Positions 48,082 through 64,000 of a stretch of 64,000 nucleotides of DNA are shown here, piece after piece. The translations under genes were made by a program, and so were the position numbers. Within the stretch, counting starts at the first letter, position 1. Each line of letters starts with the position of its first letter. The notes under the pieces are model-generated. The model was given only the letters and a program-made list of their open reading frames with translations. It had not been told where the DNA came from and did no database searches. Origin of the DNA: a virus; IMG/VR virus record IMGVR_UViG_3300002835_000148; one strand, given 5' to 3'.

Positions 48082-48312
48082 TTAACCATCACCGCTACCC
48101 TCGCCATCACCGTAGCCAGCACCACTGCCACTACCGTGGCTGAAACTACTACCTATGTCAGTGCCAAAGCCCTCTACCGCTTCAAAGTACCATTCAGGGC
48201 AATCGTTTACACCATCGCCAGCACCAGCGCCATTACCGATACCCCACCCGTGACCACGCCCTGAGTAGTGGCCTGAGTTATCTCCTTCGTTAGTGAGTTT
48301 ATAGGGTGGCAT
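48082..48312 (-). CDS. Gly-rich small protein G5 (76 aa)
   Basis: MPPYKLTNEGDNSGHYSGRGHGWGIGNG... Its ATG is embedded in the last codons of G4 and preceded by GGGAGGTGGGAAG. Confidence 0.55.
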   Translation of the reverse strand: MPPYKLTNEGDNSGHYSGRGHGWGIGNGAGAGDGVNDCPEWYFEAVEGFGTDIGSSFSHGSGSGAGYGDGEGSGDG

Positions 48313-48550
48313 CTTCCCACCTCCCGCTGTAACCGCCCTCACCATCGCCATAACCCGCACCGCCCCCCTCCCCCTCGCCACTGCCCTCGCCAGCGCAGCC
48401 TCCAATACCCCCATCCGCGCCGTCCCCACCGCCAGTGCTATCACCAGCGCCAGCATCATATCCGTAAGTAGATAGATCGCCCCAGCCCCTACCCTGCCCT
48501 GTGCCGAGGCATAAGTTATCTCCATTGTTAGTGAATCTATAGGTCAACAT
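48299..48550 (-). CDS. Gly-rich small protein G4 (83 aa)
   Basis: MLTYRFTNNGDNL...GYSGRWEDATL, with the same junction architecture as G5. Confidence 0.55.
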   Translation of the reverse strand: MLTYRFTNNGDNLCLGTGQGRGWGDLSTYGYDAGAGDSTGGGDGADGGIGGCAGEGSGEGEGGGAGYGDGEGGYSGRWEDATL

Positions 48551-48809
48551 CTTCCCACCTCCCGTTGTAGCCACCCTCACCTGCGCCTCCGCCGGAGCCA
48601 TCTCCATCACCATAGCCATCGGCATAGCTGTCTTCATTGACCTCACAATCACCATTCCCAAAACCGTCGCCAGAGCCACTATACCTGCCGTGACCTATTC
48701 TAACGTGGCTGAGAGTAGCAGCATTACCGGAGCCGTAACCCCATCCCCAACAGCGACCTGAGTCGTGGCCTGAGCTATCTCCTCCGTTAGTAAGTTTATA
48801 GGTCAACAT
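48537..48809 (-). CDS. Gly-rich small protein G3 (90 aa)
   Basis: MLTYKLTNGGDSSGH...GGYNGRWEDVDL. The start lies 14 nt inside G2. Confidence 0.55.
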   Translation of the reverse strand: MLTYKLTNGGDSSGHDSGRCWGWGYGSGNAATLSHVRIGHGRYSGSGDGFGNGDCEVNEDSYADGYGDGDGSGGGAGEGGYNGRWEDVDL

Positions 48810-48996
48810 CTTCCCACCTCCCAGTAGCGCTCCCTCTACCCTCGCCGGAACCACCGCCGAAGCCGTTGCCGTCGCCGTCGCCGTCGCCGTTGCCATAGCC
48901 GTTGCCGTAGCCGTATCCGCTGCCGTTGCCGTAGCCGTGGCCGTGGCCGTAGCCCCATTGGGAATCGTGGTCGTTACTCAGTATCTTAGGGGACAT
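48796..48996 (-). CDS. Gly/Tyr/His/Asp-rich small protein G2 (66 aa)
   Basis: MSPKILSNDHDSQWGYGHGHGYGNGSGYGYGNGYGNGDGDGDGNG...GRWEDVDL. Confidence 0.55.
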   Translation of the reverse strand: MSPKILSNDHDSQWGYGHGHGYGNGSGYGYGNGYGNGDGDGDGNGFGGGSGEGRGSATGRWEDVDL

Positions 48997-49022
48997 AGGG
49001 GTCAATGCCTTCGCTAGTGAGT

Positions 49023-49310
49023 TTATAGGGCATTGTCTTTCCAGCTCCCATCACGACCTCCTCTACCGTTGCCAGAACCCCAGCCGATGCCCACGCCAGT
49101 GCCCAAGCCGGAGCCTCCCACCGCACCGCCGCCGGAGCCTTCTACCCTGCCAGCATCTGTTATGACAGTCCCGTGTGATCGACCCATGCCGTCGCCGTAG
49201 CCGGAACCGGAAAGGCTAATAGCACCGTAGCCATAGCCATTACCGGAAGCAGTGCCGCGCCCCCTGCCATTAGTAGAGCCACAGTCGTTATTCAGTATCT
49301 TAGGGGACAT
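49023..49310 (-). CDS. Gly-rich small protein G1 (95 aa)
   Basis: MSPKILNNDCGSTNGRGRG...GSWKDNAL. ATG 49310 is preferred over the TTG at 49319. Confidence 0.55.
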   Translation of the reverse strand: MSPKILNNDCGSTNGRGRGTASGNGYGYGAISLSGSGYGDGMGRSHGTVITDAGRVEGSGGGAVGGSGLGTGVGIGWGSGNGRGGRDGSWKDNAL

Positions 49311-49593
49311 AGGGGTCAATGCCTACGACAAGTATCGTCTGGGCTGTGCCTGTGCAGGGAATCACTTCAATCACCCCCGTTAGGTAAATATCATCGACGG
49401 TAACAGACAGCTTGGACGAAGTAGCCAAACCATTCTTGCTGATCTCGCTGAGAGTGAACGCACCTTCCCATGACCAGATACGCCGCGCTTGTGTGAGTAC
49501 GCATATGTCCCTATCCAACTCCTCTACGATGCCGACATGAACGCCAGCGCTAACGGTACGAACTACTACGTATTTACCAATGTACTTTTTCAT
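49300..49593 (-). CDS. Hypothetical protein (97 aa)
   Basis: Ordinary composition (VVVRTVSAGVHVGIVEE...ARRIWSWEGAFTL). It lies immediately upstream of the Gly-rich array. Confidence 0.55.
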   Translation of the reverse strand: MKKYIGKYVVVRTVSAGVHVGIVEELDRDICVLTQARRIWSWEGAFTLSEISKNGLATSSKLSVTVDDIYLTGVIEVIPCTGTAQTILVVGIDPYVP

Positions 49594-51949: not shown

Positions 51950-52203
51950 ACATCCTCCCCCACATCGTCTGTTTTTCGCATCTCTTCGGGGGACATTTGG
52001 ATGAAGGTAGCAGGCTCGTTAGGTGGAATGACAACGTACCCATTGCTGGTCTTGTTGATTGTCGTAATGCCCTTACCACTCAGGCTGCTGATAGCATAGC
52101 CATAAGAAGTCTCCTGCACATCTGCTGCACCATCCGGCCCCCAGATAAACAATGCCTGTGCAGGTAGGGAAAATACTACGCCTAGTAAAAATAGCTTTTT
52201 CAT
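51943..52203 (-). CDS. Small secreted protein (86 aa)
   Basis: Signal-peptide-like N-terminus MKKLFLLGVVFSLPAQA. Confidence 0.55.
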   Translation of the reverse strand: MKKLFLLGVVFSLPAQALFIWGPDGAADVQETSYGYAISSLSGKGITTINKTSNGYVVIPPNEPATFIQMSPEEMRKTDDVGEDVW

Positions 52204-52691
52204 ATCTCAAACCTCTCGTCGATACCAACCTTCTCATCTAGCAAAATGTCCAAGAGCTTTATGTGAACCATGCGAGACATCTTGTACAGCATCTTCCTCT
52301 CACCAATTTTGATGCCCTCTTTAATCCCAGCGGCTTTAGCACGACCCAGCATGTCATAAGAAGGTGCAATCTCATCAGCTAACTTAGCGGCCTCTTCTAC
52401 TACCTCCTCGACTTCAGGTTCTTCTTCCATTACCTCCTCAACAACTTCTTCAACTACCTCTTCAACGGCTTCTTCCACTACCTCCTCAGCTTTATACTCT
52501 CTATTGAAACTCAGCCACTCAATGCCATCATCACTCACAACCCGCAGCACTTGGCCGCTATCAATAAGCAGCTTCAAAGGTTTTCTGATTCTGTCTTTGC
52601 TCATTCCCAATGCGTTTACAATCTGACCGCGTGTCATTTCACAGCGAGTGCTTAACAAATCAAGTAGGCAGATGCGTGTACTCATGCTCAT
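52200..52691 (-). CDS. Winged-helix-like DNA-binding protein with acidic EEVV repeat
   Basis: The N-terminus LLDLLSTRCEMTRGQIVNALGMSKDRIRKPLKLLIDSGQV is wHTH-like. A central (EEVV/EEAV)n tandem repeat follows. Confidence 0.5.
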   Translation of the reverse strand: MSMSTRICLLDLLSTRCEMTRGQIVNALGMSKDRIRKPLKLLIDSGQVLRVVSDDGIEWLSFNREYKAEEVVEEAVEEVVEEVVEEVMEEEPEVEEVVEEAAKLADEIAPSYDMLGRAKAAGIKEGIKIGERKMLYKMSRMVHIKLLDILLDEKVGIDERFEI

Positions 52692-55976: not shown

Positions 55977-55996
55977 GGGGCTACCTAAGTAGCCCC
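55977..55996 (-). promoter_or_regulatory. GC-rich hairpin between palindrome copy 1 and the RBS
   Basis: ggggctac-ctaa-gtagcccc forms an 8-bp stem. No U-tract follows on the minus strand. Confidence 0.4.
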
Positions 55997-55999
55997 ATG

Positions 56000-56022
56000 A
56001 AAACTTATACCGTATAAGTTTT
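56000..56022 (-). promoter_or_regulatory. 23-bp inverted repeat AAAACTTATAC-C-GTATAAGTTTT, copy 1 of 7
   Basis: Exact copy between the MoxR-like gene stop and the 55605-55958 gene, 41 nt from its ATG. Confidence 0.9.
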
Positions 56023-56026
56023 TACC

Positions 56027-57103
56027 TTATGAAAATAAGAAGCTGTTTTGTGCAGCCCATGTTATGAACGTCTTGTGTGTAGATGCCATGCCCTGCTTCT
56101 CACTACGCATGATGGTCTTGGCAAACAGCGCGGCTACCTCTTTGGGCATACGCTCTACATACTCCATCCACGCCGAGAATGTCTCGCGCTCTAGTCTCAT
56201 GCAAGCCTTGGCTACCAACATACAGCACGCTGCGCCAGACTTAGGGATCGCTGTACCAGTAGGGTCTTTGAGTATCTGCTCCCATCTTGGCAGGTCATTG
56301 TTTAGCTTACGCATGGTCAACAAGTCCATAGCAGCGGCCTCACCTACTGTACCCATGAGAGCGTGGATAATTACGCTATCGGGCAGATGCTCAGTAGCCT
56401 TGAGAATATCGCTGGCCTTCTCCATTGCCCTGTGAGTTACGAACGCAGCACGCTGTGCCTTAGGGTGGTTGATATAGTGATTATTGCTAGGGTGTTCCAC
56501 ATGAATGTCATCCTCGAACATAGAAGGAAACTCCAGCACCGTGCCGATAACTATGGGGTGGATGTTATTCTTGAGCGCCCAATTCTCTACCCACTCCATA
56601 GCCGAAGACTTAGTGATTGCTGCTTGACACATCCTGTTGCGCTCATGGGGTAGGAACACATCGCCCAGCCCCTCACTAGACCTGTTAGTGGTAGCAAACA
56701 CTATGCTCCCTTCTGGCAAAGCATAAGTGCCTATCATTCTATCCAGCATGACCCTCAACAGGCCGTTCTTCACCGCTTTGCTAGTCTTGCCTATCTCGTC
56801 AAGCATTATGATGACAGGCTTTTTCAGGTGACAACCAAACGCTTCGTTAGGTACGAACGACACAACATCAGTGCCGTCGATGGTCTTGAACTTCGGCATC
56901 TGCAAGTCACCCAAGTCCATTAGCTGCGCTTCTACATACACAGGGTGGTGGTCAGGGAACCTAGCTGCCAGCTCCTTGAGAATAGACGACTTGCCGCATC
57001 CCATCGGGCCAGTGACTAGCACTGTAACTTTGTCGCCAATAGCTGCGATCAGATCAGTCGCGCCAGCCAAAGATATGTAGTTGTATTCTTTCTGTATTTT
57101 CAT
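56027..57103 (-). CDS. MoxR/AAA_5-type ATPase
   Basis: Walker A is GPMGCGKS and Walker B is IIMLDEIG, with sensor-like ATTN. ATG 57103 follows CGAGAGAAACAGCA; the ORF track starts at 57148. Confidence 0.75.
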   Translation of the reverse strand: MKIQKEYNYISLAGATDLIAAIGDKVTVLVTGPMGCGKSSILKELAARFPDHHPVYVEAQLMDLGDLQMPKFKTIDGTDVVSFVPNEAFGCHLKKPVIIMLDEIGKTSKAVKNGLLRVMLDRMIGTYALPEGSIVFATTNRSSEGLGDVFLPHERNRMCQAAITKSSAMEWVENWALKNNIHPIVIGTVLEFPSMFEDDIHVEHPSNNHYINHPKAQRAAFVTHRAMEKASDILKATEHLPDSVIIHALMGTVGEAAAMDLLTMRKLNNDLPRWEQILKDPTGTAIPKSGAACCMLVAKACMRLERETFSAWMEYVERMPKEVAALFAKTIMRSEKQGMASTHKTFITWAAQNSFLFS

Positions 57104-57141
57104 TGCTGTTTCTCTCGTTGTGTTGTGTTTATTTCTGCTTA

Positions 57142-58023
57142 CTACCAAGCGAACTTATCTAACAGTGCGTCCACCTCCTCCTTCATATACTTCCTCACCA
57201 CTTCATCCTTGCGTAACTCTGCTGGTTCATACCCAGTCAACACCATCCGTATGTTGCTCTTTAACTCCTCTATCTCTACGTCCCTTGTCAGGTTGAACCC
57301 ATCCAGTGCATCGCATAACTCAAGCGCGCTCTCAATAGTCACATCATGGATGCGCCCCTTCTTACCATTCTCATCTACCCTGAGTTGCTTGGATATTTTC
57401 TCAAGCGAACTCTTGACTCTGCTACGCACCTCAGTCATAGCCCCATTCAACCTAGCATCCTGCTGTCTGGCAAACTGCTCACGCAATTCACTCAATCCTT
57501 GATTGCCTATATCTACACGGAAGTCCCCTGTCTCCGGCAGTGGGTACACCGCGCTACGCATCTCGAACTTAGCAGGTATCTCTGACGGGTCAGGGTAGTC
57601 GTCAGCCTTGAACATAGCACCAAGGGAGAACTGCGCTGCTTGTACTAACAAGGTGTACTCATTCACGAACGCTTGCACCCTGCGATTGTATTCCGCTTCG
57701 TGCGCCCCGTACTGCGCCATGTATTCTTGTAAGCGTGCGGCTGGTAATAGCCGCGTCCCTGAGTCCGACCAAGGCAGAGTGTTCCAGTTGTGCCATTGCC
57801 TGATGATGGCAGCGTACTTTGTTATGTCATCCAGTTGCCCTGACCCTGCAAGCAGGTTCTTCTGATACACACCTGCTCTGTTAGTCGCGCCCTTGTTCTG
57901 CCCTACCTCATCGGACACTTCCTTGTCCTGCTTTTTAGCAGTCCATCCTCTGATGGTCAGGTCTACCAGCACTGCGCTAGATGCAATCGTTACGTCGTTG
58001 TTGTTTACGTTGTTCATGCTCAT
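57142..58023 (-). CDS. DUF3150-like protein linked to the MoxR/VWA pair
   Basis: 293 aa. ...LVDLTIRGWTAKKQDK...TLPWSDSGTRLLP... resembles DUF3150 as I recall it. Unverified. Confidence 0.45.
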   Translation of the reverse strand: MSMNNVNNNDVTIASSAVLVDLTIRGWTAKKQDKEVSDEVGQNKGATNRAGVYQKNLLAGSGQLDDITKYAAIIRQWHNWNTLPWSDSGTRLLPAARLQEYMAQYGAHEAEYNRRVQAFVNEYTLLVQAAQFSLGAMFKADDYPDPSEIPAKFEMRSAVYPLPETGDFRVDIGNQGLSELREQFARQQDARLNGAMTEVRSRVKSSLEKISKQLRVDENGKKGRIHDVTIESALELCDALDGFNLTRDVEIEELKSNIRMVLTGYEPAELRKDEVVRKYMKEEVDALLDKFAW

Positions 58024-58042
58024 CGTTATATCCTCATTGTTG

Positions 58043-58065
58043 AAAACTTATACCGTATAAGTTTT
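58043..58065 (-). promoter_or_regulatory. 23-bp inverted repeat, copy 2 of 7
   Basis: Exact copy 19 nt upstream of ATG 58023. Confidence 0.9.
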
Positions 58066-58104
58066 TGCTGCTTTACATCAGCGGGTAAGGCCCGCCACCT
58101 CTTT

Positions 58105-58123
58105 CTACGTTTCTTCAACGTAG
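58105..58123 (-). promoter_or_regulatory. 5' stem-loop next to the promoter at 58128-58157
   Basis: Minus strand CTACGTT-GAAGA-AACGTAG, starting 4 nt after the -10 element. Confidence 0.5.
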
Positions 58124-58127
58124 ATAT

Positions 58128-58157
58128 ATTATAGCACAACTATAATACAAAAGTCAA
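58128..58157 (-). promoter_or_regulatory. Sigma70-like promoter TTGACT-N18-TATAAT
   Basis: Read on the minus strand, in the intergenic region upstream of the 57142-58023 gene. Confidence 0.55.
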
Positions 58158-58300
58158 ATTTAGACCGCGTTAACCATCAGCGGCGTAGGACTACATCCTA
58201 GTGGGAGAGAGGTGCAGAATTACGATAACTGCAATTCGACACTATATGTAGCAGCCACGGTTATTACGCAAGTGAGGCACTCATGGCTTACCCTCTTTTG

Positions 58301-58564
58301 TTAACTAAAAATTATTGCGATGACCGGCGCTTGCTGGTCTATAAAATCTCTTACGTGCCGTGGCAGTTGTGCGTAGTACACACACTGCGTCTCTCTCAGG
58401 TTGTTTGGCCCACCATAGGCTACGCTCTGTGGTGGCTCTCCCGCATTGTAGGTATAGTACCAGTATTTAGTACCCTTGATTTTGAACCTTGTCAACACTC
58501 GGGTAAACCGCTCGTCCTCAATTAAGTCATGTGTCAGATTAGTCACTTCGTATTTCATACTCAC
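58301..58564 (-). CDS. Hypothetical protein (87 aa), tandem paralogue
   Basis: Its C-terminus QQAPVIAIIFS parallels the neighbour's EQLPIIAIMLS. Confidence 0.5.
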   Translation of the reverse strand: MSMKYEVTNLTHDLIEDERFTRVLTRFKIKGTKYWYYTYNAGEPPQSVAYGGPNNLRETQCVYYAQLPRHVRDFIDQQAPVIAIIFS

Positions 58565-58565
58565 C

Positions 58566-58826
58566 TCACGAAAGCATGATCGCTATTATTGGTAGCTGCT
58601 CAGTGATTGTTCTCTGCACCCACTTGGGTGCGCTGCATGTCCTAATGGACACTCCGGTTGCTGCGTTCGTCACACGGCCTGGGCCTAGTAGACGGCACTT
58701 GGACTCCTTAAATACATGTGTTTGGTACGTCGTCCCCCTGTCATTGGTCATGGTGATCGTCACAAAATGTGACCACGCATGCCCTACATCCCACAGCTCA
58801 TGCTTAACCTCAATCTTACCGGCCAT
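58566..58826 (-). CDS. Hypothetical protein (86 aa), tandem paralogue
   Basis: Same length class and C-terminal motif as the ORF at 58301-58564. Confidence 0.5.
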   Translation of the reverse strand: MAGKIEVKHELWDVGHAWSHFVTITMTNDRGTTYQTHVFKESKCRLLGPGRVTNAATGVSIRTCSAPKWVQRTITEQLPIIAIMLS

Positions 58827-59028
58827 CGGCGTAGTCCTCGCAGTGCATGTTCAGTACCCACAGGGATACCAAGTCGTCTAGCTGTTCTTGAGTGAGGCAC
58901 CCTCTTATATCCACGAACTTATAAACAACTCGATGCACGTACCACTCACCCTCATCCTTACAGTAGGCGCACTCCAACTCTACCTGCTGTTCGTTTATTC
59001 CTATTTGTGCTTTCATACTAATTTTCAT
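58816..59028 (-). CDS. Hypothetical protein (70 aa)
   Basis: Compact ORF containing CAYCKDEGEWY. Confidence 0.45.
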   Translation of the reverse strand: MKISMKAQIGINEQQVELECAYCKDEGEWYVHRVVYKFVDIRGCLTQEQLDDLVSLWVLNMHCEDYADGR

Positions 59029-59594
59029 AACAGCTCACCCTCCTCGTCGAACTCGCACTCGTTTGCGAGTATGGATTCTTCAATAGCCTCATCGCTCGTC
59101 AGCCAGTCGTATTCCTTTTGCAGTGTGTCCTGTATCCAATCGGCAAAGCCATTGAATGCTTGCTCGATTACCTCACCATTTAGCAAGTCCTCTATTTCTT
59201 CATCGTCGTCTGCGTCACACACTTCCCAATCTACGTTCAATGAAGTGCGGTGTGATGGTGTAATCGACGCCCATAGGTAGCTACCCTGCGTATGGATAGC
59301 GCATAGTGCAGATTGCTCAACCAGAGGGTCGATGATATGTTTTAAGTCCTCTCTCTGCACATCGGTGAAGTCATCGAGCCTCATATTTTTAGAATTAAAC
59401 CGCGCCTCATACTGGACATACGCTCCATAAACTAGGCCGAATCCCTTGATCTCGAAGCCATATATCCCCAATCCAAACGCCACGTCTGCAACGTATTTGT
59501 ATACGTGCTCCCACCAATCGTGATCGACGTTGATGTCAGCGAAGCGGTCGCGGGCTTTCTCTTTTGCTTCGTTGCTCAGTTGTTCGTACTTCAT
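59025..59594 (-). CDS. Hypothetical acidic protein (189 aa)
   Basis: LSNEAKEKARDRF...DWWEHVY...ILANECEFDEEGELL resembles a plasmid or phage family I cannot name. Palindrome copy 3 lies 16 nt upstream. Confidence 0.5.
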   Translation of the reverse strand: MKYEQLSNEAKEKARDRFADINVDHDWWEHVYKYVADVAFGLGIYGFEIKGFGLVYGAYVQYEARFNSKNMRLDDFTDVQREDLKHIIDPLVEQSALCAIHTQGSYLWASITPSHRTSLNVDWEVCDADDDEEIEDLLNGEVIEQAFNGFADWIQDTLQKEYDWLTSDEAIEESILANECEFDEEGELL

Positions 59595-59610
59595 GCTGCT
59601 CTCTCCTGCG

Positions 59611-59633
59611 AAAACTTATACCGTATAAGTTTT
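59611..59633 (-). promoter_or_regulatory. 23-bp inverted repeat, copy 3 of 7
   Basis: Exact copy 16 nt upstream of ATG 59594. The symmetry extends to gcg...cgc (59608-59636). Confidence 0.9.
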
Positions 59634-59654
59634 CGCCTTGTTATTTTGTTACTC

Positions 59655-60104
59655 TTACCACCAAGCGGGTGCTGTGGCGCGATCCCAAGAGGCGAAGCTC
59701 TTGGTTCTGTAGTATGTGCGGTATGATTCTACCGCATCATCCGTCTTACACGCATCTGGCATAGCCAGAGCGAATGGCGTTAGCCCTGCATTGGGCAGGG
59801 TTGAGATAAAGCCAGTCCTTCCTAAATGTACGCACTTGGCAAGGGCTAAGTGATTGTCGTGCTTACCCCACCTCTTCTTGTACTCCTCATTTAGCCACAC
59901 CATTAACTCCCATAGCCACGTAGCATTATCTTGTGACTGTGCCACCCACCTAGTGCATGGGTGGTTTTTATGGGTGGGCTTGTATGGGCCGTTAAGGGCT
60001 GTGGATAACATCTGCGCGCTCTCTAATATCATCTTCGGCACATGCTTATCGCAATGTGCCTGAGCCGCAAGGCGCGGCTCCTCGTCTAATACAAATATAT
60101 TCAT
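59655..60104 (-). CDS. Conserved phage protein (149 aa), function unknown
   Basis: ATG 60104 (MNIFVLDEEPRLAAQAHCDKHVPKMILESAQML) overlaps the upstream stop as ATGA. It resembles a widespread phage and giant-virus family, and a glycosylase-like role is only a guess. Confidence 0.5.
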   Translation of the reverse strand: MNIFVLDEEPRLAAQAHCDKHVPKMILESAQMLSTALNGPYKPTHKNHPCTRWVAQSQDNATWLWELMVWLNEEYKKRWGKHDNHLALAKCVHLGRTGFISTLPNAGLTPFALAMPDACKTDDAVESYRTYYRTKSFASWDRATAPAWW

Positions 60105-60337
60105 TGCTTTCTCTCCTCGTCCTCGTAGAATTTTGCCTCGACGCAATTCCCCCACAAACCCGTGACTTCACACAATGCGAAGCCCACTTCATCGCCACAG
60201 TCCCATGTGCCTGTACCTGCCGTAGCTAAGAAGGCATTGAGCATACCTTCTTCCTCATCCTCCAGCCCTGAGTAGTCGCCATTGATAATGGCGGGCAGGA
60301 AGTGTTCGCCTATTGTGTATTCGATTGGCTCTCTCAT
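60101..60337 (-). CDS. Hypothetical acidic protein (78 aa)
   Basis: Compact ORF with ATGA overlaps. Confidence 0.45.
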   Translation of the reverse strand: MREPIEYTIGEHFLPAIINGDYSGLEDEEEGMLNAFLATAGTGTWDCGDEVGFALCEVTGLWGNCVEAKFYEDEERKQ

Positions 60338-60699
60338 CTCAATTCCTCCGGTACATCTACCTCATCGCCTAATTTACTAGCCACATAGCAGCGCATAGCT
60401 GCGATAAGGGGGGTCGTGCCGTGAAAGTGGTCAGACCGTTTTTGTTTACGGCAGGCAAACCAGTCAGGGTTTGCTTCCTTGAATGCTTTTGCTTGTGCAA
60501 GGGTCAGGTTACACAGCACCTCTATGCCCTCCCGCTCAATGATCGGCCCACCTTGCTCCCATTTGGTCGAGGGGCTAAAAAACCCTTGTTTTACGCCATC
60601 TATGGCGATCTTACCAAGCATCAAGCCTTCACACTTTGCCACTGCCCAGTCAAGGGCAGCGCCACTCAGTCGATATGTTTTCATACTCTCGTATCTCAT
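60334..60699 (-). CDS. DUF2591-like phage protein
   Basis: LSGAALDWAVAKCEG near the N-terminus is recalled from DUF2591 (NinX-like) proteins. Confidence 0.5.
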   Translation of the reverse strand: MRYESMKTYRLSGAALDWAVAKCEGLMLGKIAIDGVKQGFFSPSTKWEQGGPIIEREGIEVLCNLTLAQAKAFKEANPDWFACRKQKRSDHFHGTTPLIAAMRCYVASKLGDEVDVPEELR

Positions 60700-60714
60700 C
60701 GTTGTTCCTCCTGT

Positions 60715-60737
60715 AAAACTTATACCGTATAAGTTTT
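60715..60737 (-). promoter_or_regulatory. 23-bp inverted repeat, copy 4 of 7
   Basis: Exact copy 15 nt upstream of ATG 60699. Confidence 0.9.
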
Positions 60738-60744
60738 CGTGTTG

Positions 60745-61014
60745 TTACTCGCCATATGCGCTTTCGATGCGCTCCCCGCTGTGGGCGCAGTACCAGTCGT
60801 ACTCGCCCCAATTCACGTCCATATAAATGACGCGCCATCCGTAATCGCTCTGTTCCCTGACAGCTCGCAATACTTCCTTGTAATTCTCCTTGACTGCCTT
60901 AAATGATAAGGCTTCGCCATCGCTGGCGATGAAATACACTGGATACCCGCCCGGCCACGCATAGGGGCCAGAGCGGAGGGCGTTCTTCAAATCTTTGCTG
61001 TTTTTTATTTCCAT
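60745..61014 (-). CDS. Hypothetical protein (89 aa)
   Basis: Compact early ORF with no motif recognised. Confidence 0.45.
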   Translation of the reverse strand: MEIKNSKDLKNALRSGPYAWPGGYPVYFIASDGEALSFKAVKENYKEVLRAVREQSDYGWRVIYMDVNWGEYDWYCAHSGERIESAYGE

Positions 61015-61016
61015 TG

Positions 61017-61247
61017 CTACTCCTCCTCTATGAACATCACTACGCAGTCGCCGTTTTTGGGGTGCAGCACTATGGTGTCATGCCCATACTGCACATCACA
61101 GGGTATACCTGCCCACCCCGCCACTGCCTTGGCAGCGCGGATTTTTGCCAGTCGGGTGTTTGTCTTGGTCTCGGCCTCGTACCGACGCACCCACGCATAG
61201 TTTGCGTCTCCTCCGAATGTATCAGTCACTTCTACTTTTATTTTCAT
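61017..61247 (-). CDS. Hypothetical protein (76 aa), first gene after promoters P2/P1
   Basis: An AGGAGAG RBS precedes it. Palindrome copy 5 lies 18 nt upstream of the ATG. Confidence 0.5.
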   Translation of the reverse strand: MKIKVEVTDTFGGDANYAWVRRYEAETKTNTRLAKIRAAKAVAGWAGIPCDVQYGHDTIVLHPKNGDCVVMFIEEE

Positions 61248-61265
61248 TGCGCTCTCCTATGTTTG

Positions 61266-61288
61266 AAAACTTATACCGTATAAGTTTT
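61266..61288 (-). promoter_or_regulatory. 23-bp inverted repeat, copy 5 of 7
   Basis: Exact copy 18 nt upstream of ATG 61247. Confidence 0.9.
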
Positions 61289-61397
61289 CGTTGGGTTTGT
61301 TGTGATGATGTGTTGTGTCTAGCTGGTAAGGCCAGCCGTCCTATATGTGAATGAAATGCGCAACGTGTAAACCTATACAAGCACCGCTCATTCATCG

Positions 61398-61417
61398 CAC
61401 CGTTTTCTCAAACAGTG
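61398..61417 (-). promoter_or_regulatory. 5' stem-loop next to promoter P1
   Basis: Minus strand CACTGTTT-GAGA-AAACGGTG. It has one U-G wobble relative to the P2 copy. Confidence 0.55.
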
Positions 61418-61422
61418 GGGAT

Positions 61423-61451
61423 ATTATACTCTAATATCTGGTTGCTGTCAA
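61423..61451 (-). promoter_or_regulatory. Promoter P1: consensus sigma70 TTGACA-N17-TATAAT
   Basis: Minus strand TTGACAGCAACCAGATATTAGAGTATAAT. Confidence 0.7.
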
Positions 61452-61519
61452 GCATTTAATTTTAGGTCATTCATCATCATCCAGCAGCACCTAAAACTCT
61501 CTGCCCTCAGCCTCCGTCC

Positions 61520-61539
61520 CACTGTTTTCTCAAACAGTG
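61520..61539 (-). promoter_or_regulatory. 5' stem-loop next to promoter P2
   Basis: Minus strand CACTGTTT-GAGA-AAACAGTG, a perfect 8-bp stem starting 5 nt after the -10 element. Confidence 0.55.
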
Positions 61540-61544
61540 GGGAT

Positions 61545-61573
61545 ATTGTACGCCTATTCTACTTCTTTGTCAA
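61545..61573 (-). promoter_or_regulatory. Promoter P2: TTGACA-N17-TACAAT
   Basis: Minus strand TTGACAAAGAAGTAGAATAGGCGTACAAT, lying 122 bp upstream of P1. Confidence 0.65.
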
Positions 61574-61604
61574 GTCTTTGTTTTTGTTGGCTTTTTCTGC
61601 GTTT

Positions 61605-62732
61605 TTACCATAGGGGTCTTACCTTTAGTGGGCTGAGTGGGATGAAGTTGGTTTTCTCCCAGTAGTTTACTGGGTCTGCATCGGGTAGCACGTGGCTTCC
61701 GTCTGCTTTTAACTCGTCCACCTTGTTTCCAGCACTGTCTATCACTACCTGCCATCCTGTCGGCTGGCCTATGGGTTTTGTGTTGCTACTGGGTTTTGTG
61801 TTGCTACTGGGTTTTGCGTTGCTACTGGGTTTTGCGTTGCTACTGGGTTTTGCGTTTTCCTGCCCCCACTCATTTTCCTCGCCTCTGCCCCATGCTTCCA
61901 GTGCATCGAGCAGGGTCATCATGTCGGCTTCGTCTATTATCCGCAGGCTCTTAGCGTATGGGGTCTGGTACTTGAGCCAATGCTCGCGTGTGTTGTTTAT
62001 AACCTGTAAGAATGAAGCCGTACTCACACCACCTAACAAGCCCGCATCTATGCTACCGCCACCTAATAGGCCAGCGCCTCCCAAGCCAGTCCCTCCGCCT
62101 ACCAGCCAATTAAATGTGTAGGCACTTTTAGCAGCCTTTTCAGCGCGTTCTGTCGCGCTGTTGCCCTTGTTCCTATTCATTATAGAAGGTAGATACATGG
62201 TAGAAGCACCCTCTGCCCTGAAATCCTGCTTGTGGTCGATGCAGTATTTGTTCTTAACATCCTCAATCAAGGCAGCACTAGGGATAATAATGGAGTGGCG
62301 CACCGTTTCGACGTAATTCACAGCACCCCCATGCGCTTCTACTCCATAGTACGACACTATGCCTTTCCTAGCTGCTATGCCTGCATTACGCATGTTCAAC
62401 GTGTTTTCTGATGCGTACCTTGTGCTTAGAAATTCTCCACGCTGGCGCGTGATGTATACAAGGTAGTCTAGTTCGGGTAGGTAGAGTCCTTCTGGCATGA
62501 ACTCCCGTGTCTTAGCACGAGGGCTTTTCCTTGGGCTTCTTTGGTTGTTTGTGTCGGTGGCGGTGGTGATTTTTATGGGCTGGTGGTTGGTGCTTTGTTG
62601 GGCGTTTTGCTGTAGGTTTTCTATCTGGTGCGTCAGTTTTTTTATCTCATCCATCATCATTGCCACCGTCTTTTCCAGCATTTTTTCACGGTCTTGGGCA
62701 CTTTCGGGGGAGGGGGAGAATTGTGATGTCAT
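61605..62732 (-). CDS. Hypothetical early protein (375 aa) with KPSSN(A/T) repeat and Gly/Leu-rich tract
   Basis: ATG 62732 (MTSQFSP) follows AGGA. The ORF-track TTG start at 62789 is itself a TTGACA hexamer. No family recognised. Confidence 0.55.
   Translation of the reverse strand: MTSQFSPSPESAQDREKMLEKTVAMMMDEIKKLTHQIENLQQNAQQSTNHQPIKITTATDTNNQRSPRKSPRAKTREFMPEGLYLPELDYLVYITRQRGEFLSTRYASENTLNMRNAGIAARKGIVSYYGVEAHGGAVNYVETVRHSIIIPSAALIEDVKNKYCIDHKQDFRAEGASTMYLPSIMNRNKGNSATERAEKAAKSAYTFNWLVGGGTGLGGAGLLGGGSIDAGLLGGVSTASFLQVINNTREHWLKYQTPYAKSLRIIDEADMMTLLDALEAWGRGEENEWGQENAKPSSNAKPSSNAKPSSNTKPSSNTKPIGQPTGWQVVIDSAGNKVDELKADGSHVLPDADPVNYWEKTNFIPLSPLKVRPLW
61773..61857 (-). repeat. 18-nt tandem repeat x ~4.7 (encodes KPSSNA/KPSSNT)
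   Basis: gggttttg(t/c)gttgctact units at 61773, 61791, 61809 and 61827, plus a partial fifth unit. Confidence 0.9.
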
Positions 62733-63025
62733 GGTGAATCCTATAATTAGATGTAACGAATCGTTCTTGTATTTGAAATAACTTGTCAAATTTAGGGGGG
62801 TTGAAAGTTACCGCTCTTACTCGGATATGATGGGGGCGTAAGCGGATTAAGTCAATAGGCTTTTTGTATTTATATTGGATTGGGGGATTGATTGGATTAG
62901 GGAAAAAATAGTGATGTTTATGGCTCTTAATTTTGGTTGTTTTTCAGTGTGAAAGTTTAACCTGTGGATAAAATTAAGGCGTTGATTTGGAAGGAGTTTT
63001 TCGACGGCGATTAAGGAAATGCGCG

Positions 63026-63152
63026 ATATAATAACCTATTCTATTAAAGAGAAAAGAGAGAGACCCTATAAGAGGGGTCGTAGGAAAACGGGCGGCTGGG
63101 AAAATCTCTACGACGCCCTCTCTTTCTTCTTTAATAGAATACATTATTATAT
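63026..63152. repeat. Large interrupted inverted repeat (~35-nt A/T-rich arms) enclosing two smaller hairpins
   Basis: Arms at 63026-63062 and 63118-63152 match except for about 4 positions. The inner stems are gaccc/gggtc (63062-63079) and gtcgtag/ctacgac (63077-63114). Confidence 0.8.
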
Positions 63153-63217
63153 CTTCTACTTTTTTCTTTTTTCGCGGGGTTCGCGCCCACCTCACCCCTG
63201 CCTCAAACGCACCCCCA

Positions 63218-63240
63218 AAAACTTATACCGTATAAGTTTT
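63218..63240 (-). promoter_or_regulatory. 23-bp inverted repeat, copy 6 of 7
   Basis: Exact copy in the non-coding control region. Confidence 0.9.
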
Positions 63241-63319
63241 GCATCCCTGCCACGCAACACGAAAACGCCCAAAGGCCTCAGTCCTAGTAATAAGGAACTG
63301 GCTTGGTGGAACTGGCTTG

Positions 63320-63342
63320 AAAACTTATACCGTATAAGTTTT
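63320..63342 (-). promoter_or_regulatory. 23-bp inverted repeat, copy 7 of 7
   Basis: Exact copy in the non-coding control region, 102 bp from copy 6. Confidence 0.9.
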
Positions 63343-63411: not shown

Positions 63412-63435
63412 AAAAAAGCCGCGCATACGCGCGGC
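63412..63435 (-). terminator. Rho-independent terminator of the rightmost gene
   Basis: Minus strand GCCGCGC-GTAT-GCGCGGC followed by TTTTTTGG, ~20 nt after the stop at 63454. Confidence 0.8.
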
Positions 63436-63453
63436 TATGTTGGTGAGTGCGTG

Positions 63454-64000
63454 CTACTTGCTAGACTTAGCCTTGAGCGCGTCGCCCGCTTTGCGGGTTT
63501 CCTGTTCGCTTTGTATCAAAGCATTTTTTAAGTCCACGTACTTTATGCCTAGGATTCCCGCAGTGTTTTTAATGTACTCGACTGTCAAGGGGTGCCGTTG
63601 AAATTGCAATAGTATCGTGTACCAATGCTCCAGCTCTGATAGCGCGTCCGTGTCGTCTGTTTTGCTTACTATTTTGGATAGTGTTGCGTCCGCATCTTGC
63701 ACTTGTTTTGGTGGGACTTTACCCGCTGGAGCTGGAGCTGGAGCTGGAGCTGGAGCTGGAGCTGGAGCTGGAGCTGGAGCTGGAGCTGGAGCTGGAGCTG
63801 GAGCTGGAGCTGGAGCTGGAGCTGGAGCTTTATCCGCTGATGCCGGAGCTTTATCCGCTGATGCCGGAGCTTTATCCGCTGATGCCGGAGCTGATGCCTT
63901 GCTAACAGCCCTATTGATCGTTTTGCCGTCCCAGCCTATCCACGCTTTTGCCGTTTTTAGCCTATGCGGGTTTAAGTCCGTTGGGATTATTCGCTCTTGA
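63454..64000 (-). CDS. Partial CDS (N-terminus beyond window) with (Pro-Ala)n and SADKAPA repeats
   Basis: The frame of ORF 63454-63702 stays open to base 64000. Read by hand it is ...WIGWDGKTINRAVSKASAPASADKAPASADKAPASADKA(PA)17...GKVPPKQVQDADATLSK... The GTG at 63702 is only the first in-window start codon. Confidence 0.6.
   Translation of the reverse strand, partial: QERIIPTDLNPHRLKTAKAWIGWDGKTINRAVSKASAPASADKAPASADKAPASADKAPAPAPAPAPAPAPAPAPAPAPAPAPAPAPAPAPAGKVPPKQVQDADATLSKIVSKTDDTDALSELEHWYTILLQFQRHPLTVEYIKNTAGILGIKYVDLKNALIQSEQETRKAGDALKAKSSK
63725..63826 (-). repeat. Perfect hexanucleotide tandem repeat (GCTGGA)17
   Basis: Counted directly. It encodes (Pro-Ala)17 in the minus-strand frame. 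Confidence 0.95.
63827..63889 (-). repeat. 21-nt tandem repeat x3 (gctttatccgctgatgccgga)
   Basis: Three exact units encoding the heptad SADKAPA (register arbitrary), read as APASADK in the flanking sequence, on the minus strand. Confidence 0.9.

Follow-up and report, generated by a model that had tools for sequence, protein, structure and literature searches.

A dyad-symmetric palindrome repeated in the early region of a phage genome and its lineage-specific counterparts in related freshwater phages

Palindrome copies and their surroundings

The window, i.e. the whole 64,000-nt stretch of viral DNA analysed here, falls about 3.1 kb short of the complete genome; terS, an HNH gene and the 5' portions of both terL and the first early gene lie outside it. 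The window contained seven exact copies of a 23-bp palindrome, AAAACTTATAC-C-GTATAAGTTTT on the plus strand (full form AAAACTTATACCGTATAAGTTTT; Table 1), matching the set previously noted from the letters, with a chance expectation of 0 (100 dinucleotide-preserving shuffles). The mismatch-tolerant search proposed in that sequence-only reading recovered no eighth site at up to three mismatches across the whole 64 kb, and the core TATAC.GTATA was confined to the same seven sites of the window. The late arm (1-36308) and the replication genes contained no copy, as had been stated, and no extra one was found on contig L002 in the 1.5 kb from the window end to the start of terS.

Table 1. Palindrome copies and neighbouring features in the window
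Feature	Position	Strand	Context
Candidate reader, 163-aa winged-helix protein	52200..52691	-	best candidate reader
GC hairpin ggggctacttaggtagcccc	55977..55996	-	between copy 1 and SD; without U tract
Palindrome copy 1	56000..56022		4 nt past the stop of the AAA-ATPase gene
Palindrome copy 2	58043..58065		within leader of promoter 58128-58157
Hairpin	58081..58095	-	GCGGG-CCTTA-CCCGC, between promoter and copy 2
Transcript 5'-end hairpin	58104..58124	-	CTACGTT GAAG AACGTAG, directly after the 58157 promoter
Sigma70-type promoter	58128..58157	-	TTGACT-18-TATAAT with TG
Palindrome copy 3	59611..59633		16 nt to ATG 59594 of a 189-aa gene
Palindrome copy 4	60715..60737		15 nt to ATG 60699 of a NinX-like gene (60334-60699)
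Palindrome copy 5	61266..61288		within leader of promoter 61423-61451
Hairpin	61322..61336	-	GCTGG-CCTTA-CCAGC, between promoter and copy 5
Sigma70-type promoter	61423..61451	-	TTGACA-17-TATAAT, 12/12 match
Sigma70-type promoter	61545..61573	-	TTGACA-17-TACAAT; tandem duplicate of the 61423-61451 cassette
Palindrome copy 6	63218..63240		non-coding stretch downstream of first early gene
Palindrome copy 7	63320..63342		about 75 nt past the terminator of the first early gene
Intrinsic terminator of first early gene	63417..63436	-	
First early gene, 3' part	63454..64000	-	264 aa in L002; runs off window end

Each of the seven copies occupied either a leader or a gap between cistrons on the transcribed strand. 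Copies 2 to 5 stood 19, 16, 15 and 18 nt from a start codon, in accordance with the 15-19 nt described for four copies; copies 2 and 5 preceded ATG 58023 of the DUF3150 gene (57142-58023) and ATG 61247 of a 76-aa gene, respectively, and the dyad of copy 3 was lengthened by GCG/CGC flanks. Copy 1, which had been described as set apart from its gene by a GC hairpin, was indeed followed by this hairpin, then by a Shine-Dalgarno (SD) sequence and, 41 nt from the copy, by ATG 55958 of a 117-aa gene. Copies 6 and 7 headed a non-coding stretch of about 690 nt just downstream of the terminator of the first early gene; their earlier description as non-coding held, but they do not lie in the divergent early/late control region. 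Copy 7 was followed by the conserved AAGCCAGTTC...TAGGACT, and the order terminator, element, aagccagttc... recurred in L008 (3955) and L014 (5490). The stems of the two CCTTA hairpins, at 58081 and 61322, differed by a compensatory change, and the loop of the former was identical to the 3' terminus of the anti-SD sequence of 16S rRNA.

Lineage-specific palindromes in related phages

The search of relatives, also suggested earlier, showed that related uncultured freshwater phages possess an element of this kind at orthologous junctions between early genes, each lineage with its own sequence. At least 15 core types, including TAGAC.GTCTA, CATAG.CTATG, CATAC.GTATG and CGTAC.GTACG, were present in about 35 of 80 further loci. 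The palindrome differed between orthologous junctions, whereas the flanking hairpin, SD and gene start were almost identical. The site of copy 1 was occupied by TAGAC.GTCTA (L010), CATAG.CTATG (L015) or TAGTC..GACTA (L011), and its GC hairpin kept its structure but not its sequence in L006, L010, L011 and L015. Orthologs of copy 3 read AAACCTCATAGGCTATGAGGTTT in L015 and AAAGTCATACGGTATGACTTT in L097, and the DUF3150 gene was preceded by an element in L006, L011, L012, L014, L015 and L097.

Types switched in a concerted and symmetric manner. The window palindrome (AAAACTTATAC-G-GTATAAGTTTT) and that of L015 (AAACCTCATAG-G-CTATGAGGTTT) were separated by three changes, mirrored on both arms. When eight types were aligned, 9 of the 11 arm positions had changed on both sides, with 22 double-change cells and no one-sided (wobble) change; paired cells reached 94% compared to 66% in shuffles, and no G·U substitution occurred in 88 arm cells across types. 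Imperfect copies were also free of G·U (wobble) bias on the coding strand, and the outer A/T flanks were frequently non-complementary (TT/TT, AA/AA). Within one genome the arms were invariant and the centre free. On the minus (coding) strand, all seven window copies had a central G, so that the fixed orientation previously emphasised was correct for the window but not as a general feature: among the 238 copies from 30 loci, the centre was G in 69, C in 67, A in 44 and T in 22, and the ortholog of copy 5 in L097, an 87-97% identical relative, had a C. Apparently functional type-B copies (L008, L014) had a centre of 0, 1 or 2 nt.

These 238 copies were restricted to the first ~10 kb of the early operon, spanning -6 to +5 kb around the DUF3150 gene. 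They were coupled to promoters, as 51 of the 67 strong sigma70-type promoters (76%) had a copy at +1 to +200, and at +25 to +49 in 37 of these. A start codon was located within 90 nt downstream of 69% of the copies, with a peak at 20-34 nt. In L006, L011, L012, L016 and L001, a copy preceded the promoter of the first early gene or overlapped its -35, where it is probably untranscribed DNA. Several genes of L014, L018 and L019 began 4-5 nt past an element without any SD, seven such ATGs lying 10-11 nt from the palindrome centre; in L014-type genes an SD-like AAGGAG lay upstream of two hairpins and would meet the AUG only if the RNA folds, which suggests that folded RNA may matter there. Some copies were located inside genes.

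The role of recombination cassette boundary, also raised earlier, has one direct example: at the copy 5 site, L097 possessed two elements (the proximal one being the copy with centre C) enclosing an extra 128-aa gene, whose boundaries relative to the window fell exactly at the two copies. L097 also contained an inserted element flanked by an 11-bp direct repeat and, at the copy 4 junction, an extra small gene in place of the element, and L015 had an extra gene between an element and a relic element. Elements moved together with duplicated promoter cassettes. The relic in L015, a type-E phage, was a type-A half element, and L097 held a heterotypic palindrome; both indicate type-specific maintenance after recombination.

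Proposed duplex-DNA operators and alternative roles

On comparative grounds, the 23-mer represents, in this phage, a dyad-symmetric cis element whose sequence is specific to the phage type and which belongs to a family-wide system. Among the four roles listed in the sequence-only reading, which had expressed no preference, that of operator for a dimeric phage regulator is best supported by the comparison, through the concerted switching of types, the strictness of the dyad symmetry, A/T flanks that do not pair and the lack of wobble changes. The complete proposal, to which we give an even chance, is that the palindromes would be duplex-DNA operators for a phage-encoded dimeric regulator of host-RNAP early units and would also serve as recombination joints. 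A homodimeric regulator would read the 23-mer as double-stranded DNA, both within the leaders of early promoter cassettes used by host RNAP (sigma70) and in the short gaps between immediate-early cistrons, and once bound would block or modulate transcription over the first ~10 kb of the early operon. As an operator at +25 to +49 is clear of RNAP, repression would need a roadblock, and early shut-off by such a roadblock is the outcome we infer. The copies would double as homologous recombination joints, where gene or promoter cassettes may be gained or lost, because all of them are identical and because the cassette indel in the close relative spans exactly element to element. Among the points against DNA operators, a centre length of 0-2 nt fits a hairpin loop more readily than the gap between rigid dimer half-sites, and most copies are transcribed and adjoin ribosome-binding sites.

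Both would suit an RNA-level operator, i.e. a transcribed hairpin 5' of the ribosome-binding site that a phage RNA-binding protein or endoribonuclease would read, with early mRNAs being shut off, activated or processed through RegA-like repression or Cas6-like stem recognition and cleavage. The start codons downstream of most copies, the transcribed position of all window copies, the hairpin predicted for all seven (-5.9 to -16.7 kcal/mol) and the L014-type starts are in its favour. However, conservation resides in the stems and not in the loops, whose base is free, whereas the neighbouring GC hairpins keep structure but not sequence; G·U substitutions and coding-strand wobble bias are absent, pairing is often lacking in the outer A/T-rich flanks, the folding energy of many type-B hairpins is marginal (-0.8 to -1.1 kcal/mol), and copies occur upstream of first-gene promoters. 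The early ORFs showed no RNA-binding domain, and Rfam gave no match. The RegA-like operator suggested earlier is possible but rather unlikely, and less favoured than the DNA operator. Still less probable are pure recombination joints, i.e. repeats that shuffle cassettes like the promoter-early/stem-loop (PeSL) motifs of T4 and are homogenised by gene conversion, without a trans-acting reader. They would account for the enclosed 128-aa gene and the inserted element of L097, the extra gene of L015 and the elements accompanying duplicated promoter cassettes, but recombination requires identity and not dyad symmetry, which leaves the mirrored changes in at least 15 types unaccounted for. Moreover, a 23-bp repeat (11-bp core) is short for efficient homologous exchange, direct repeats in an essential operon would be deleterious unless maintained by some other selection, and the sharp +25 to +49 promoter geometry and early-only placement favour a regulatory function.

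A promoter role is unlikely, and the palindrome had rightly been judged not to be a sigma70 promoter. An N4-type promoter, in which a phage RNA polymerase, possibly carried in the virion, would read the extruded hairpin and start ~11 nt 3' of the loop centre, yielding short-leader or leaderless early or middle mRNAs, would fit the window stem (3-nt loop with central purine), the seven SD-less ATGs of L014, L018 and L019, and a 2631-aa virion polyvalent protein with long unannotated stretches. It is nonetheless very improbable: no RNAP was detected by PHROG or Pfam, the 2631-aa protein had no PDB sequence match, perfect sigma70 promoters 25-150 nt upstream already drive these units, a promoter that is perfectly palindromic, with no orientation at its centre (G 69 : C 67), would fire both ways, and certain copies fall within genes. 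An intrinsic terminator/attenuator or RNase III site between early cistrons is scarcely credible. The window version does combine a stem with an A tract and a U4 run, and copy 3, because of its GCG/CGC extension, passed a terminator-like scan, but on the plus strand, antisense to the early genes. The terminator role was rejected, in line with the earlier wording of a weak terminator at best, as the stem is A/U-rich, its only four U are themselves paired, type B has its U tract 5' and its A tract 3', and type F has no U tract. RNase III substrates typically span about two helical turns, well above the stem of the palindrome (10-11 bp or less, weaker in relatives), and the processing site proposed earlier was not supported; neither role requires sequence identity.

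Comparable systems and candidate readers

Among known systems, the 17-bp dyad repeat of Cluster O mycobacteriophages (TGTTCGG-NNN-CCGAACA) comes closest; binding by a dimeric DNA-binding protein was predicted for it (PMC4351075). As here, many copies per genome share invariant inverted arms, a variable centre and no meaningful orientation, lie mainly between genes or close to their 5' ends, with a higher density in the non-structural arm, and the phage is apparently not temperate. The present elements differ by their centre (1 nt compared to 3 nt) and flanks (A/T-rich compared to G/C-rich), their confinement to the first ~10 kb of the early operon, their coupling to 76% of strong sigma70 promoters (Cluster O sites being mostly not near promoters), their many types, with different sequences at orthologous sites of related phages, and at least one element-bounded indel (Cluster O repeats being involved in few if any rearrangements). 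Cluster A stoperators, the sites of the L5 gp71 and Bxb1 repressors (PMC6550527, PMC9283540), are likewise short phage-specific sites, present by dozens in short intergenic gaps of transcribed operons, whose motif varies between related phages, with motif distances tracking repressor distances, and for which an elongation block (roadblock) was proposed. They are, however, asymmetric 13-mers oriented with transcription, bound by a monomeric repressor and located in both genome arms of temperate phages, while the elements here are palindromic, unoriented and limited to the early region, and neither an integrase nor an immunity cassette was seen.

The PeSL cassettes of T4-like phages (PMC2839356, PMC4122927) are also repeated composite regulatory motifs beside small early genes, with host-type early promoters and with indels between close relatives that stop at the motifs. 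Each PeSL joins a promoter to a terminator-like stem-loop, and its sequence is not a strictly invariant palindrome; no switching of types through mirrored changes in the arms has been described for such cassettes, and the palindrome here also stands alone between cistrons. T1-like phages (T1, Stevie) possess 22-bp intergenic repeats (PMC4319613). With 16-20 copies of ~22 bp, mostly intergenic and in a lytic phage, these resemble the present elements, but they lack symmetry and follow the direction of transcription. Multi-operator regulons of IncP plasmids (KorB OB, TTTAGCSGCTAAA; KorA OA, GTTTAGCTAAAC) also rely on numerous short palindromes of identical sequence, one class having a single central base, at varying promoter distances, read by a dimeric regulator acting globally on the early functions of a mobile element. 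They belong to plasmids and not phages, their operators are not known to diversify between close relatives, and no ParB/KorB-like protein was detected here.

As for the reader, the protein at 52200-52691 had previously been taken for a winged helix-turn-helix (wHTH) protein, which was corroborated by its AlphaFold model (residues 1-65, pLDDT 84-94, topology H-S-H-H-S-S) and by Foldseek matches to wHTH domains of MarR/ArsR/ROK repressors (rmsd 1.4-2.0 A over ~60 columns). Dimers of the MarR family recognise compact palindromes, e.g. SlyA TTAGCAAGCTAA, and their wings touch flanking A/T minor grooves. From this modelled fold, the protein is a plausible reader of the palindrome, an assignment that we make tentatively and with low confidence. 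A weaker second candidate is the first early gene product, in which an (AP)n linker connects a conserved N-terminal domain to a variable helical C-terminal domain of ~60 aa. Within the ranges examined, the wHTH family was not detected in L006, L012, L016 or more distant palindrome-bearing loci. It was present in palindrome types A, B, C and E, with a variable wHTH joined to a conserved C-terminal domain, and the recognition helix began with SKDRIRK (A), T[KR][ED]Q[LV][RK] (B), FNRKLSK (C) or SNDQVRK (E). L014 and L019, with identical palindromes, had substantially different wHTH domains but shared the first recognition-helix residues (R-x-Q-V-K/R).

The palindrome and its lineage-specific types

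The window covers most of a phage genome of ~67 kb, and a pattern search of its 64 kb recovered AAAACTTATACCGTATAAGTTTT exactly at seven sites (56000, 58043, 59611, 60715, 61266, 63218 and 63320), with 7/7 copies identical over all 23 nt and zero matches expected from dinucleotide-preserving shuffles. The seven-copy inverted repeat described in the sequence-only reading was thereby recovered in full, and the mismatch-tolerant search which that reading had proposed detected no eighth site across the whole 64 kb with up to three mismatches. The 11-bp core TATAC.GTATA was confined to the same seven sites. Apart from its centre base the element is a perfect palindrome, and hence not an asymmetric site. 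Its placement also agreed with the earlier description for four copies, which end 15-19 nt before an ATG equipped with a GGAG-type Shine-Dalgarno (SD) sequence, and for the 56000 copy, which is separated from its downstream gene by a GC hairpin. The two copies previously assigned to a control region are indeed non-coding, but they follow the intrinsic terminator (63417-63436) of the first early gene, which runs off the window end. Contigs L002 and L004, which reach past the window into that gene (264 aa), an HNH gene and the start of terS, added no further 23-mer. In public collections the exact 23-mer occurred in only five short viral or metagenomic contigs and in no bacterial genome, so that a host element and a widespread mobile element are both excluded.

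No GenBank phage was matched by megablast of the early region, and tblastn with the proteins retrieved distant isolates only (Pseudomonas phage Rollin, 32% for the primase; cyanophages, 28% for DUF3150); no characterised relative was found by these searches. About 100 loci were fetched from metagenomes and IMG/VR using the AAA-ATPase (56027-57148) and the DUF3150 protein (57142-58023) as queries. Each related phage possessed its own repeated palindrome in the same genome region, with arms likewise invariant among the copies of one genome (types A to F, see table). Further IMG/VR loci carried CGTAC.GTACG in up to 15 copies, or other cores including CATAT.ATATG, CTGTC.GACAG, GGGAC.GTCCC, GACAT.ATGTC and CCTAT.ATAGG.

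Coordinates of features in the window and in related phage loci (L handles), and palindrome types
Feature	Genome	Position	Strand	Content or sequence
Late genes	window	1-36308	+	portal, tail fibres, 2631-aa polyvalent virion protein
Replication and early genes	window		-	DUF927 primase-helicase, SNF2 helicase, family A DNA polymerase, then ~35 small genes
Consensus sigma70-type promoters	window	61573-61545, 61451-61423, 58157-58128	- (early)	
CCTTA-loop hairpins	window	58081-58095, 61322-61336	-	
CCTTA-loop hairpins	L006	~4380, ~8505		
CCTTA-loop hairpin	L014	8251-8267		
Palindrome copies with an SD-less start 4-5 nt after them	L014	8291, 10001, 11384		
Palindrome copies with an SD-less start 4-5 nt after them	L018/L019	9474, 10954		
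Palindrome type A	window			AAAACTTATAC-G-GTATAAGTTTT
Palindrome type B	L006, L008, L014; L010 (AAAAC...GTTTT flanks)			TTTTAGAC-N-GTCTAAAA
Palindrome type C	L011			GTTAGTC-NN-GACTAAC
Palindrome type D	L012			TAATCGAAAC-N-GTTTCGATTA
Palindrome type E	L015			AAACCTCATAG-S-CTATGAGGTTT; type-E site AAACCTCATAGGCTATGAGGTTT
Palindrome type F	L016			CCTCATAC-N-GTATGAGG

Motif types switch between related phages at orthologous sites. By alignment of their surroundings, the palindrome sites of the window and of the type-E locus L015 are orthologous: in the stretch 3' of the AAA-ATPase gene, the two genomes agree almost completely in the GC hairpin, the SD and the opening codons of the gene for the 117-aa protein, and the palindrome differs at three positions, mirrored in both arms. 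Upstream of the 189-aa gene, the surroundings are again conserved and the differences in the palindrome again mirrored. When eight types were aligned over the 11 arm positions, 9/11 positions changed on both sides, the cells comprised 22 double changes and 0 one-sided changes, and 94% of cells were complementary, compared to 66% in shuffles. An apparent deletion between two elements of L006 relative to L007 proved to be a scaffold gap of Ns.

Family counts drew on 30 typed loci with 238 elements between them. A single-base centre was present in 85% of copies (G 69, C 67, A 44, T 22), and the near-equal G and C counts indicate that it has no orientation relative to transcription. The fixed orientation proposed from the window (7/7 G) thus does not extend to the family and is an accident of lineage; even in L097, which shares 85-97% identity with the window, C stands at the centre of the copy orthologous to that at 61266. 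Elements occurred at a density of ~1 per kb from -6 to +5 kb around the DUF3150 gene start, and none was found in the late genes, distal early genes or replication genes of the 30 typed loci. A start codon followed within 90 nt for 69% of elements, the distances peaking broadly at 20-34 and 40-44 nt. On the early strand, 67 promoters were strong (11 or more of 12 matches); 51 of them had an element within +1 to +200, 37 of these at +25 to +49.

Over-representation of an 8-mer, GTTTAAAC, in L013, a 76-kb contig from a distant relative, was judged a different phenomenon. It occurs 22 times in 21 kb, overlaps start codons and often lies between SD and start codon (GGAGT-GTTTAAAC-ATG), and a sigma70-like factor is encoded at the locus; it looks like a different repeat system.

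Promoter leaders and the nature of the site

All three early-strand sigma70-type promoters have a 5' hairpin directly downstream. After two of them (61451-61423 and 58157-58128), the order is 5' hairpin, CCTTA-loop hairpin, palindrome, SD and ATG, so that at least two copies sit in the leaders of host-RNAP transcripts. Cassettes of promoter, 5' hairpin and palindrome occur duplicated, yet ~75% of copies have no strong promoter nearby. The duplication in the window is in tandem (61545-61573 with hairpin 61518-61541, and 61423-61451 with hairpin 61398-61417), CCCACTGTTTGAGAAAACAGTGGG being the 5' hairpin after each promoter, and in the second hairpin copy pairing is preserved by a G·U change, a sign of structure at the RNA level. 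The CCTTA-loop hairpin is a second conserved leader motif, placed between sigma70 promoter and palindrome, and its stems vary by compensatory changes (GCGGG-CCTTA-CCCGC, GCTGG-CCTTA-CCAGC, CTGCG-CCTTA-CGCAG). As CCUUA is the anti-SD 3' end of 16S rRNA, the loop could pair with the AAGG of the SD. Within the ~690-nt non-coding stretch downstream of the first early gene, a large inverted repeat with ~35-nt arms (ataataatgtattctattaaagaagaaagagag ... ctctctcttttctctttaatagaataggttattat, ~63030-63160) may be an origin or a structured RNA, and the sequence AAGCCAGTTC...TAGGACT adjoining copy 7 (63320) is conserved and common to the type-B loci L008 and L014.

Several roles were rejected. An intrinsic terminator requires a G+C-rich stem and a U tract, but the stem here is A/U-rich (-5.2 kcal/mol for the bare 23-mer) and relatives carry an A tract, or no tract, 3' of it, in keeping with the sequence-only view of a weak terminator at best. 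That reading had likewise discounted a sigma70 promoter, correctly in that the element lacks a -35 and consensus promoters lie upstream, but its suggestion of an RNase III site fails: such sites, of the T7 early region type, have some 20 or more base pairs of duplex RNA, and this stem is too short (window, 10-11 bp; type B, 4-8 bp). REP/RAYT elements were dismissed in the absence of a Y1 (HUH) transposase domain in the scanned ORFs and of a GTAG/CGTC head, and an Rfam scan over 54-64 kb returned nothing. A hairpin promoter of the N4 type is unlikely, as the large ORFs, including the 2631-aa protein, gave no RNA polymerase match in Pfam, PHROGs or PDB sequences (bar a very divergent enzyme), the centre is unoriented whereas N4-type elements are directional, and consensus sigma70 promoters are already present upstream.

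Between a site in duplex DNA and one in RNA, the chances that the element acts as a duplex-DNA operator are put at about even. Within a genome, sequence is kept beyond structure, the opposite of the neighbouring GC hairpins; the stem is conserved and the would-be loop base free; no wobble-type change separates the types, and imperfect copies show no G·U bias on the coding strand. Moreover, the outer A/T flanks are often non-complementary, the stability of type-B RNA falls to as little as -0.8 kcal/mol, and in five lineages the promoter of the first early gene has a copy 5' of it or overlapping its -35. Function at the RNA level is rather improbable, even though nearly all copies are transcribed and close to ribosome-binding sites, and the type-B centre is 0, 1 or 2 nt long. 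The same reading would draw on L014, L018 and L019, where several genes begin 4-5 nt past the element without an SD and AAGGAG or AAGGGAG is found ~35-43 nt upstream, 5' of two hairpins, an arrangement that may form a split ribosome-binding site joined by RNA folding.

A candidate reader of the palindrome

Pfam and PHROGs searches of essentially all early ORFs revealed no clear DNA- or RNA-binding domain. The 163-aa protein encoded at 52200-52691 (-), named as a candidate winged-helix (wHTH) regulator in the sequence-only reading, gained support from its predicted structure, with a winged helix over residues 1-65 (pLDDT 84-94) and Foldseek matches to MarR/ArsR/ROK repressors (rmsd 1.4-2.0 Å, E about 1e-3); its Pfam HTH_5 and MarR_2 matches were sub-threshold and its C-terminal domain was predicted at low confidence (pLDDT 48-67). 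HMM searches defined a family with a variable N-terminal wHTH, a low-complexity linker and a conserved C-terminal domain, encoded downstream of the element-rich zone at a distance of a few kb. Members were found with type A (window, L097-L102), B (L008, L014, L019), C (L011) and E (L015), and the start of the recognition helix differs between these four sampled types, but the B-type members are also unlike one another. The family was not found within the fetched ranges of L006, L012, L016 or more distant loci, and L014 and L019 share a palindrome but have substantially different wHTH proteins. Given these discrepancies, the 52200-52691 protein remains a plausible candidate reader. An IMG/VR search for the family yielded just 7 loci and no new palindrome types.

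Other candidates were set aside. The C-terminal domain of the first early gene product is variable but resisted assignment to any fold or family, and the homolog search was swamped by low complexity. None of the small ORFs after the first gene or of the conserved 95-aa and 117-aa families had DNA-binding features, and Serglycin matches were an artefact of the GS linkers in a concatenated polyprotein of early ORFs. An identity screen (within-type vs between-type) of gene families from 30 loci gave no clear reader candidate, being noisy due to spurious ORFs and phylogenetic confounding.

Recombination, known systems and other genome features

Compared to the window, L097 has a single additional gene (128 aa) whose two ends coincide exactly with elements, the one clear case of its kind. 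An inserted element in L097 is accompanied by an 11-bp direct repeat at its flanks. Where the window has its 59611 copy, the orthologous site in L097 is occupied by another palindrome, AAAGTCATAC-G-GTATGACTTT, beside a recombinant segment, and L015 retains a relic type-A half element, TTATACTGTAT, next to an inserted gene. The elements therefore mark module joints, a secondary property resembling that of PeSLs (PMC4122927), where an indel between close relatives likewise ends in the motif. Foreign palindrome types are not retained after recombination, which fits a type-specific reader.

Multi-copy dyad repeats are already known in phages, and by analogy Cluster O mycobacteriophages offer the closest published case, a 17-bp dyad repeat with invariant arms, a free and unoriented centre and a predicted dimeric binder (PMC4351075). 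The present element similarly has arms invariant within a genome and a centre variable and unoriented across the family, and the counterpart of that predicted binder would be the wHTH protein, a candidate from structure prediction. Stoperators of Cluster A mycobacteriophages are asymmetric, point in one orientation, belong to temperate phages with an immunity cassette and have a motif that tracks repressor divergence (PMC6550527, PMC9283540); many phage-specific sites within operons are shared with them, but the element is palindromic and unoriented, and no integrase was detected among the phage proteins scanned. It also differs by its symmetry from the asymmetric T1-type 22-bp repeats (PMC4319613). 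New are the many symmetric sequence types at conserved positions in a large uncultured phage group, the tight coupling to host-type promoters, the confinement to the immediate-early region and the evidence for cassette exchange at the elements.

These phages constitute a natural experiment, in which dozens of relatives keep an element tied to consensus host promoters at fixed positions and exchange its sequence, symmetrically in every case. The operator reading, if true, shows how early genes are timed and shut off in widespread freshwater phages without their own RNA polymerase, offers orthogonal repressor-operator pairs for synthetic biology, and makes the palindrome type a sequence marker of phage lineage and recombination history; an RNA-level role would make the element a phage-specific operator of a new class, acting in translation or processing. 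A speculative and rather improbable extension of the operator reading is a rapidly diversifying 'private code', with an operator and cognate reader per lineage, in these uncultured, apparently lytic phages. Such a code would gate every host-RNAP early promoter cassette and thereby time the shut-off of immediate-early genes. In co-infection, mutual 'heteroimmunity' would hold between related phages, since a resident would silence early genes solely in invaders with the same code. The elements would also serve as portable joints for recombination, and a cassette passing from one phage to another would therefore need re-coding to the recipient palindrome.

Among other genome features, the 2631-aa virion protein (28413-36308) contains a tail lysozyme domain, LPD23 and LPD38, and for more than 1500 of its residues neither a family nor a PDB sequence match could be detected. 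Insertions of ~0.85-0.93 kb at 45205-46053 and 41326-42255, in the genes for the DNA polymerase (898 aa) and SNF2 helicase (828 aa), respectively, are missing from the 97% identical relative L097, whose proteins measure 617 and 519 aa, and as both insertions have PHROG 'endonuclease' matches they are probably inteins or homing-endonuclease insertions. Low-complexity tandem codon repeats occur in the first early gene ((AP)n and SADKAP, 63700-63890) and in a 375-aa ORF (SNAKP, 61780-61850), the repeat lengths of early proteins varying among relatives (L001, L003, L005), and a series of paralogous small ORFs at 48082-49319 encodes glycine-rich GYG/GNG repeat proteins. In the lineage of the window, the interval from terS to the first early gene has an inserted HNH/AP2-type homing endonuclease gene (L002, 255-848); the related L001 lineage has a 23-mer copy and iteron-like repeats (aatgagaatgaatcgcaaatgagaatcaatcgc) there instead.
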